A stretch of DNA of 64,000 nucleotides from Candidatus Thorarchaeota archaeon (GTDB lineage: Archaea; Asgardarchaeota; Thorarchaeia; Thorarchaeales; Thorarchaeaceae): positions 19,337 through 83,336 of the forward strand of contig JBHLQH010000015.1 in NCBI GenBank assembly GCA_048884965.1. Direction: 5' to 3'. This document shows, in pieces, positions 3,062 to 3,477 of the stretch; the stretch's first letter is position 1, and every line of letters begins with the position of its first letter. The notes beneath the pieces are model-generated. The model was not told the origin of the DNA and ran no database searches. It saw nothing but the letters and a program-made list of their open reading frames with translations. The position numbers were made by a program, and so were the translations under genes.

Positions 3062-3199
3062 TTAGATAGGTCTCCTCAAAGATAGGATAGATGAATCTCA
3101 AGTGACTATGTTTTAGATGCTTCGGTGCTCTTGGATGCATTTGAAGCGTGAGAATAAGACTCGGATAAACCTCTTATACTCTTACACATCCGTAAGAAA

Positions 3200-3400
3200 T
3201 GCGTCAGGGGAACTTTGGACGTGGGACAAGAATGGGAGATGGAATCAATTCGATTCTAGGGTGAATATTCGACCGGATACATCCCATGTTTGAAAAGACT
3301 GCGAAAGCGATAAAAAGATCGCATTTCGTCATACCCGTTTTTGGGTCTAAGGTCCCCTTGCAGAGTTCTCGTATCCGGTCGATTCACAAATCACCTTCTT
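3200..3400 (+). ncRNA. Candidate structured RNA / riboswitch-like leader
   Basis: Perfect 12-bp inverted repeat 3269-3280/3371-3382, a 13-bp pairing 3206-3219/3346-3358 and internal hairpins. TATA-like CTTATA near 3173 and a T-rich end near 3396-3402. Confidence 0.55.
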
Positions 3401-3437
3401 TTACAGCGGCGGGAAGAGTTATATTCCCATTTGATTC

Positions 3438-3477
3438 GTAGGACAACATATCCTAGAGTAGGATAACATATCCTAGA
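3438..3477. promoter_or_regulatory. Tandem 20-bp repeat of a palindromic operator-like site
   Basis: GTAGGACAACATATCCTAGA then GTAGGATAACATATCCTAGA. Core TAGGATA-N3-TATCCTA lies just downstream of TATA-like GTTATAT (3418-3424). Confidence 0.7.

Follow-up and report, generated by a model that had tools for sequence, protein, structure and literature searches.

The region at about positions 3201-3392 of the window (the whole 64,000-nucleotide stretch analysed here, from contig JBHLQH010000015.1 of a Candidatus Thorarchaeota archaeon) is, on the + strand, a real and uncatalogued Thorarchaeaceae noncoding RNA (ncRNA) gene; the element is called RNA-1 below. The reading we favour, with appreciable doubt, is that RNA-1 is a stand-alone ncRNA gene whose transcript would be the precursor of a circular RNA, processed at a bulge-helix-bulge (BHB) and equipped with a leader that masks part of the RNA itself. 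A preliminary description of the region had left the choice between a novel archaeal riboswitch and a stand-alone ncRNA; the second option gains support because RNA-1 has its own upstream TATA-like box and persists apart from the transporter genes that it usually precedes.

A Thorarchaeaceae RNA gene ahead of an uptake operon

RNA-1 sits in a 430-nt gap, with tmk (minus strand, PF02223) on one side and four co-oriented genes on the other; these encode a DUF4430 protein (PF14478), an unnamed 248-aa protein (orf248), an ECF S component (PF07155/PF12822 as read in the G013 homologue) and a wHTH-DUF4443 protein. The preliminary description had assigned the RNA to the + strand, a choice that G-U pairs, TATA spacing and BHB handedness now make alike, and all the segments that it listed lie at the coordinates it gave. 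The features referred to below are the following.

3164-3180, + strand: BRE/TATA-like promoter of RNA-1, read from sequence; its spacing puts the predicted start near 3201-3203
3201-3260, + strand: 5' leader (predicted 5' exon), of which 3206-3219 pairs with the invariant segment as the outer helix of set A
3259-3268, + strand: 5' half of the BHB, with outer pairs at 3259-3260, GUGA at 3261-3264, a 3-nt bulge at 3265-3267 and a predicted cut after 3266
3267-3389, + strand: predicted excised, probably circular, 123-nt RNA, as BHB cleavage rules would have it
3269-3280, + strand: 5' strand of the rod (set B), the intron-side helix, supported by covariation
3281-3350, + strand: head, seen in alignments, with a C-rich junction (3281-3289), near-invariant CUGCGA (3299-3304), an irregular hairpin (3301-3329) and a variable hairpin (3333-3346)
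3351-3370, + strand: near-invariant motif GGUCCCCUUGCAGAGUU(CUC), seen as invariant alignment columns; predicted to be masked by the leader, its GGUCCC being common to RNA-2
3371-3392, + strand: 3' strand of the rod (3371-3382), central strand UCAC (3384-3387), 3-nt bulge (3388-3390) and outer pairs (3391-3392)
3396-3402, + strand: U-rich tract, possibly the 3' end of the precursor, read from sequence and poorly conserved
3412-3424, + strand: separate BRE/TATA-like promoter of the DUF4430/ECF-S operon, a TATA-like box before the operator in loci with and without RNA-1
3439-3455 and 3459-3475, + strand: two palindromic TAGG-N9-CCTA operators (0 expected by chance)
809-1026, - strand: RNA-2, a structured RNA gene that carries GGUCCC twice and lacks a BHB, recognised by folding and conservation

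A covariance model built from 22 homologues finds one copy of RNA-1 in each of 27 of the 86 Thorarchaeaceae genomes, spread over 6 of the 16 genera, and no copy among 124 genomes from other Asgard families; five further copies, from metagenomes, have the same gene context. The source genome has a single copy, and every positive genome holds RNA-1 at one syntenic site, from which it is absent in an unfiltered search of loci from RNA-negative genera, although a very divergent copy could lie elsewhere in those genomes. No copy was found in viral contigs, and bacterial and viral pattern matches, two Caldilineaceae among them, gave no score with the model. Neither RNA-1 nor any of six homologous loci has a match in Rfam (cmscan at permissive E-values, E<=10), and the literature searched, with incomplete coverage, yielded no description of it. 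In a tree of the neighbouring proteins from 22 genomes, the RNA-1-positive genomes fail to group as a single clade (AU p 0.022) and four changes are required, which suggests an old gene that was lost several times, or one that was transferred. The homologues are mutually related rather than independent, so the shuffle counts reported below are not probabilities.

Homologues carry TATA-like boxes at similar spacing upstream of RNA-1, and for genera g3 and g9 this puts the predicted start on a GAGGAC/GAGAAC anti-motif. The U-rich tract of the preliminary description is present; its conservation is poor. Some loci have been rearranged: a 3.3-kb insertion with transposase-like fragments parts RNA-1 from tmk in one genome (locus L050 of G004), and G013 has a degenerate copy (L147:5577-5672, minus strand) which keeps the head and the invariant motif and has lost the leader and the BHB, with two genes in the usual place of tmk.

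Crossing helices, the bulge-helix-bulge and a sibling RNA

The fold consists of two crossing sets of pairings. Set B, which forms a rod, is, judged by covariation, the best-supported structural element of RNA-1. Among 1000 dinucleotide shuffles, 3 contain a perfect 12-bp Watson-Crick helix like this one; for the region as a whole, the nested fold is unexceptional (z -1.64), as expected where helices cross. The extension of set B, described earlier as GTGAA/TTCAC, holds firmly as GUGA/UCAC: in 22 homologues, 96.6-96.7% of the cells of the helix and its extension are paired, with two-sided changes at 11 of 16 pairs, while a slid-partner control gives 33-44%. Genera g3, g9 and g15 lengthen the rod by up to ten covarying pairs.

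The outer helix of set A (leader with 3346-3358) brings the leader onto the near-invariant GGUCCCCUUGCAGAGUU segment of 3351-3370. This duplex is worth -26.7 kcal/mol in the source genome, a value that 0 of 200 shuffled leaders equal, and between -17 and -30 kcal/mol in all 23 homologues tested; in 18 of the 23, at most 3 of 200 shuffled leaders match it. The G/C core of the helix shows no two-sided change, and its support comes from lineage-specific matching extensions (G004, G001, G020). The leader accepts mismatches and the motif stays invariant, so something beyond this pairing seems to constrain the motif, and we read the leader as a mask. Of set A as first drawn, then, the outer helix stands, on complementarity conserved across the 23 homologues, and the inner helices fare less well: pairing between 3219-3226 and 3282-3289 is clear in genus g1 only, the hairpin at 3301-3329 is variable in homologues and competes with an alternative helix (3299-3304/3358-3363), and the hairpin at 3333-3346 is variable and missing in genus g7. 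The alternative helix is itself 98.5% paired with zero two-sided changes, and in most rings its predicted probability is low; for the head, which lies between the two strands of the rod, alignment and folding data fail to discriminate between at least two candidate folds. The earlier wording, in which A and B form either a pseudoknot or alternative folds, remains apt.

What the preliminary description lacked, and what the alignment was first to reveal, is a BHB of conserved geometry at the base of set B. The BHB is the motif cut by EndA (PMC7714728; bioRxiv 10.64898/2026.10.13.758758). All 16 aligned homologues have a 3-4-3 BHB at one and the same position, in differing sequences: the 4-bp central helix and the 3-nt inner bulge are present in 16 of 16, and the outer bulge is closed in 15. 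The central helix occurs in at least seven different sequences and, by lineage, in two registers, with both bulges constantly 3 nt long; pairing is 100%, with two-sided changes, at the three shared central pairs, and the bulge letters vary freely. The 3-nt bulges lie 3' of each central-helix strand, on opposite strands, a handedness that is cleavable on the + strand only.

How strict is this geometry? In the source genome it is relaxed, with a U3268.U3383 mismatch and an outer helix of 2 bp. The inner helix is always present, and a strict BHB, with an outer helix of at least 3 bp, characterizes 12 of the 24 copies from genomes and 4 of the 5 from metagenomes; the remaining genome copies, including that of the source genome and most of those of g1 and g7, have an outer helix of 0-2 bp or a mismatched one. 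Minimum-energy folding of the two strands returns the exact 3-4-3 form in 3 of 24 copies and a form with a one-base slip in 4 more. As to base rates, 17 of 1212 long-range helices of the source genome (1.4%) have a BHB outside them, none of 30 RNA-2 rods has this geometry, and random interrupted rods show it in 0.1% of cases by minimum-energy fold and in 6% by a loose pattern. An unanchored BHB pattern is present in half of shuffled sequences; with this frequency, and the 6% in random rods, only the anchored conservation of the BHB counts.

With the second predicted cut after 3389, within the bulge at 3388-3390, the excised piece would measure 107-140 nt in homologues and 170 nt in one. The 123-nt piece predicted here holds the invariant core and is probably circularised. 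Invariant bases fall within the predicted intron, except for one G of the leader and one of the central helix, and the predicted ring has no conserved small ORF. The source genome encodes two EndA subunits, one catalytic (with Tyr/His/Lys motifs) and one structural, and RtcB; Asgard EndA has been reported as a relaxed (alpha-beta)2 type (PMC5829648).

RNA-2 lies 2.2 kb from RNA-1, between a longin-wHTH gene and a longin-GTPase gene, behind its own TATA-like box; the conserved promoter favours the minus strand. Its fold is stable (z -3.95), and it occurs in 24 of 26 other Thorarchaeaceae genomes searched and in 0 of 124 other Asgard genomes. The two RNAs share a closing rod, a C-rich junction, GGUCCC followed by GAGUU, and a TATA-like box of their own; RNA-2 differs in being near-universal in the family, in carrying GGUCCC twice, in having a 3' trailer, and in lacking both a BHB and a masking leader. 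A profile of RNA-2 is matched by 20 of 22 RNA-1 sequences, 19 of them at the GGUCCC motif, while 19 of 1100 shuffles are reported at all; the similarity is confined to the motif, with scores below 7 bits. RNA-1 and RNA-2 are likely, though not proven, to be paralogous.

A processing model and its rivals

The favoured model builds on conservation, the rod, the BHB geometry, leader complementarity, the enzyme genes and the independence of the operon. Transcription would start at about 3201, and the leader, emerging first, would pair during transcription with the GGUCCCC segment (set A), hiding the motif. The rod (set B) would then form, allowing the two-subunit tRNA splicing endonuclease to cut both bulges and RtcB to join the ends into a circular RNA of about 120-140 nt; removal of the leader, or of the spliced exons, would leave a ring that shows GGUCCC and the C-rich strand, which RNA-2 appears to present unprocessed. 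Both crossing helices exceed one turn, so full coexistence of A and B would need threading; the two probably compete kinetically, and a switch between them may gate splicing, rather than the operon. What would the ring do? Our best guess is that it binds a protein common to RNA-2, as a decoy or a scaffold, and our second choice is base-pairing to G-rich targets. Counting against the model, a leader duplex of -17 to -30 kcal/mol would need a helicase or a nuclease for its release. More tentatively still, and with the balance leaning against it, the whole could be a dedicated Asgard circular regulatory RNA gene, in which the leader inactivates the motif, a fold switch gates splicing, and the ring and its linear sibling meet in a ribonucleoprotein.

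If RNA-1 precedes transporter genes, why not let it control them? A new riboswitch over the DUF4430/ECF-S operon that senses a cobamide or a flavin, as first proposed, would suit an RNA that lies upstream of a DUF4430 gene and an ECF S component, has two crossing folds and possesses an invariant core able to form a pocket. However, the covariance-model check suggested at the outset, against cobalamin, FMN and TPP models at permissive E-values, produced no aptamer match; Rfam similarity is absent; and the faint FMN-like look at 3258-3276 turned out to be specific to the source genome, its letters varying freely among homologues because they are rod strands. There is no expression platform, and the ribosome-binding site lies 90 nt off, behind a second promoter. 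The operon has a promoter and operator of its own in all 45 loci (19 with RNA-1, 26 without), where a TATA-like box and then a TAGG-N9-CCTA operator stand ahead of the first downstream gene, and RNA-1 outlives the transporter genes. The two part company in four genomes, which bears out in part the earlier caveat that homologues might not be tied to transporter genes: G003, G004 and G006 have kept RNA-1 and lost DUF4430, orf248 and ECF-S, and in G014 a 735-aa PAS/HATPase gene stands between RNA-1 and the operon. Control of the operon appears to lie with a protein operator rather than with RNA-1, and we give the riboswitch very little credence. Scarcely better placed, and improbable in our view, is an intron in the 5' UTR of a transcript that begins at the upstream promoter and reads through; its removal would tune the downstream genes as in Haloferax HVO_1309 (PMC7714728). 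The same-strand operon, about 100 nt downstream in most genomes, and the lack of a conserved terminator between RNA-1 and the operon accord with such an intron; yet the downstream gene varies (DUF4430, DUF4443, PAS/HATPase), the operon is everywhere supplied with a promoter and operator of its own, and the interior of the predicted intron is conserved beyond the needs of mere removal.

Two further explanations leave the operon aside. RNA-1 could be a linear stand-alone ncRNA, in which the 3-4-3 rod would serve as a structural element, a protein-binding site or a signal for decay, and the A/B pseudoknot would be the working fold: the rod and the leader duplex occupy different bases and could coexist, RNA-2 is similarly laid out (rod, C-rich junction, GGUCCC) without a BHB, and the outer helix is relaxed in many copies. 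We consider this unlikely but worth keeping in view; against it, both bulges stay fixed at 3 nt while the central helix shifts in sequence and register, which fits EndA rules, and RNA-1 lacks the tandem G.A pairs of a kink-turn. Alternatively, the working product might be the leader or the spliced exon RNA, acting as an antisense antagonist of the GGUCCC motifs of RNA-2. RNA-2 carries GGUCCCC, to which the leader is complementary, and the genes are 2.2 kb apart; however, in 18 of 19 genomes duplexes of the leader with RNA-2 do not surpass those of shuffles, leader variants follow the cis target (G004, G020, L191), and conservation resides in the intron rather than the exons, which makes this reading very doubtful.

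Returning to the operon, its operators resemble the IdeR/DtxR box (PMC8464063), and it may be metal-regulated via a DtxR-family protein; a second candidate for the regulator is the wHTH-DUF4443 protein encoded within the operon. Further copies of the TAGG-N9-CCTA operator lie elsewhere in the genome (G000 contigs C2, C3, C7, C9, C28 and C50), which has one DtxR-family gene (C3:179695).

RNA-1 among known RNAs

Several familiar identities were tried and rejected. ARAGORN and nhmmer, run on doubled rings and on spliced exons, found no permuted or intron-disrupted tRNA, SRP, RNase P or 5S RNA, and a divergent RNase P, SRP or 5S RNA is disfavoured by intact genes elsewhere in the genome. A box C/D guide RNA does not fit either: box C is found in 0 of 16 rings, and complementarity to rRNA is limited to short matches. 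For a guide role on rRNA (G014 16S, 23S and 5S), short complementarities were all that appeared, the 5S match of RNA-2 being specific to G014; 23S rRNA has the same AAGGUCCC letters, probably by chance. RNA of a mobile element (IS200/IS605 omega RNA, HEARO) is at odds with a single syntenic copy, no Rfam match and none in viral contigs. A motif common to three RNAs was also dropped, GGUCCC being present in only 1 of 25 homologues of a third RNA, on contig C56.

The C56 RNA is a separate find: a conserved intergenic structured RNA (L218:2100-2430, minus strand; G000 C56:9099-9429) with covarying hairpins and a conserved 3' AGGUGGUGGCGCGGC, matched in 50 of the 86 family genomes and without an Rfam match. 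Its 3' motif is reminiscent of a T-box antiterminator. Other observations concern stable RNAs: a 16S rRNA match in G014 spans 2411 nt (L187:1501-3911), implying an insertion or intron of about 900 nt, and in G000 about 19 tRNA genes of atypical sequence lie densely packed in a block at about 160883-163299 of one early contig, possibly viral or a contaminant, while many of its other tRNAs carry introns.

In the literature surveyed, described substrates of the archaeal splicing endonuclease other than tRNA and rRNA are very few: cbf5 mRNA, the HVO_1309 leader and the Thermoproteus SRP RNA. If the favoured model is true, a gene devoted to making a circular RNA, masking leader included, would add a regulated ncRNA to the scope of protein-catalysed splicing, and would do so in Asgard archaea, the closest prokaryotic relatives of eukaryotes. 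The model makes a sharp prediction, a junction of 3389 to 3267; independently of it, a false riboswitch lead is removed for the uptake operon.

How does RNA-1 compare with characterized systems? With cobalamin and FMN riboswitches it shares a position upstream of an ECF S-component gene and alternative pairings; unlike them, it has no covariance-model match, lacks their conserved motifs and an expression platform, and is not bound to transporters. Circular BHB introns, exemplified by the C/D guide in the tRNA-Trp intron and the 5'-UTR intron of Haloferax HVO_1309 (PMC7714728, PMC12558985), have in common with RNA-1 a 3-4-3 BHB, a similar intron size and a circular product, which for RNA-1 is predicted. 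However, the exons of RNA-1 form no tRNA, box C is absent, and the unit is self-promoted, with the downstream operon promoted separately. In the circular SRP RNA of Thermoproteus, a leader and a trailer form the BHB, a heterotetrameric EndA cuts it, and closure by RtcB is predicted (PMC4731332). There, a non-tRNA precursor is processed at a BHB into a functional ring, as we predict for RNA-1. The Thermoproteus molecule, by contrast, is a permuted SRP RNA, whereas the genome that carries RNA-1 has its SRP, RNase P and 5S RNAs elsewhere; and the leader of RNA-1, besides contributing to the BHB, would additionally mask the core motif.
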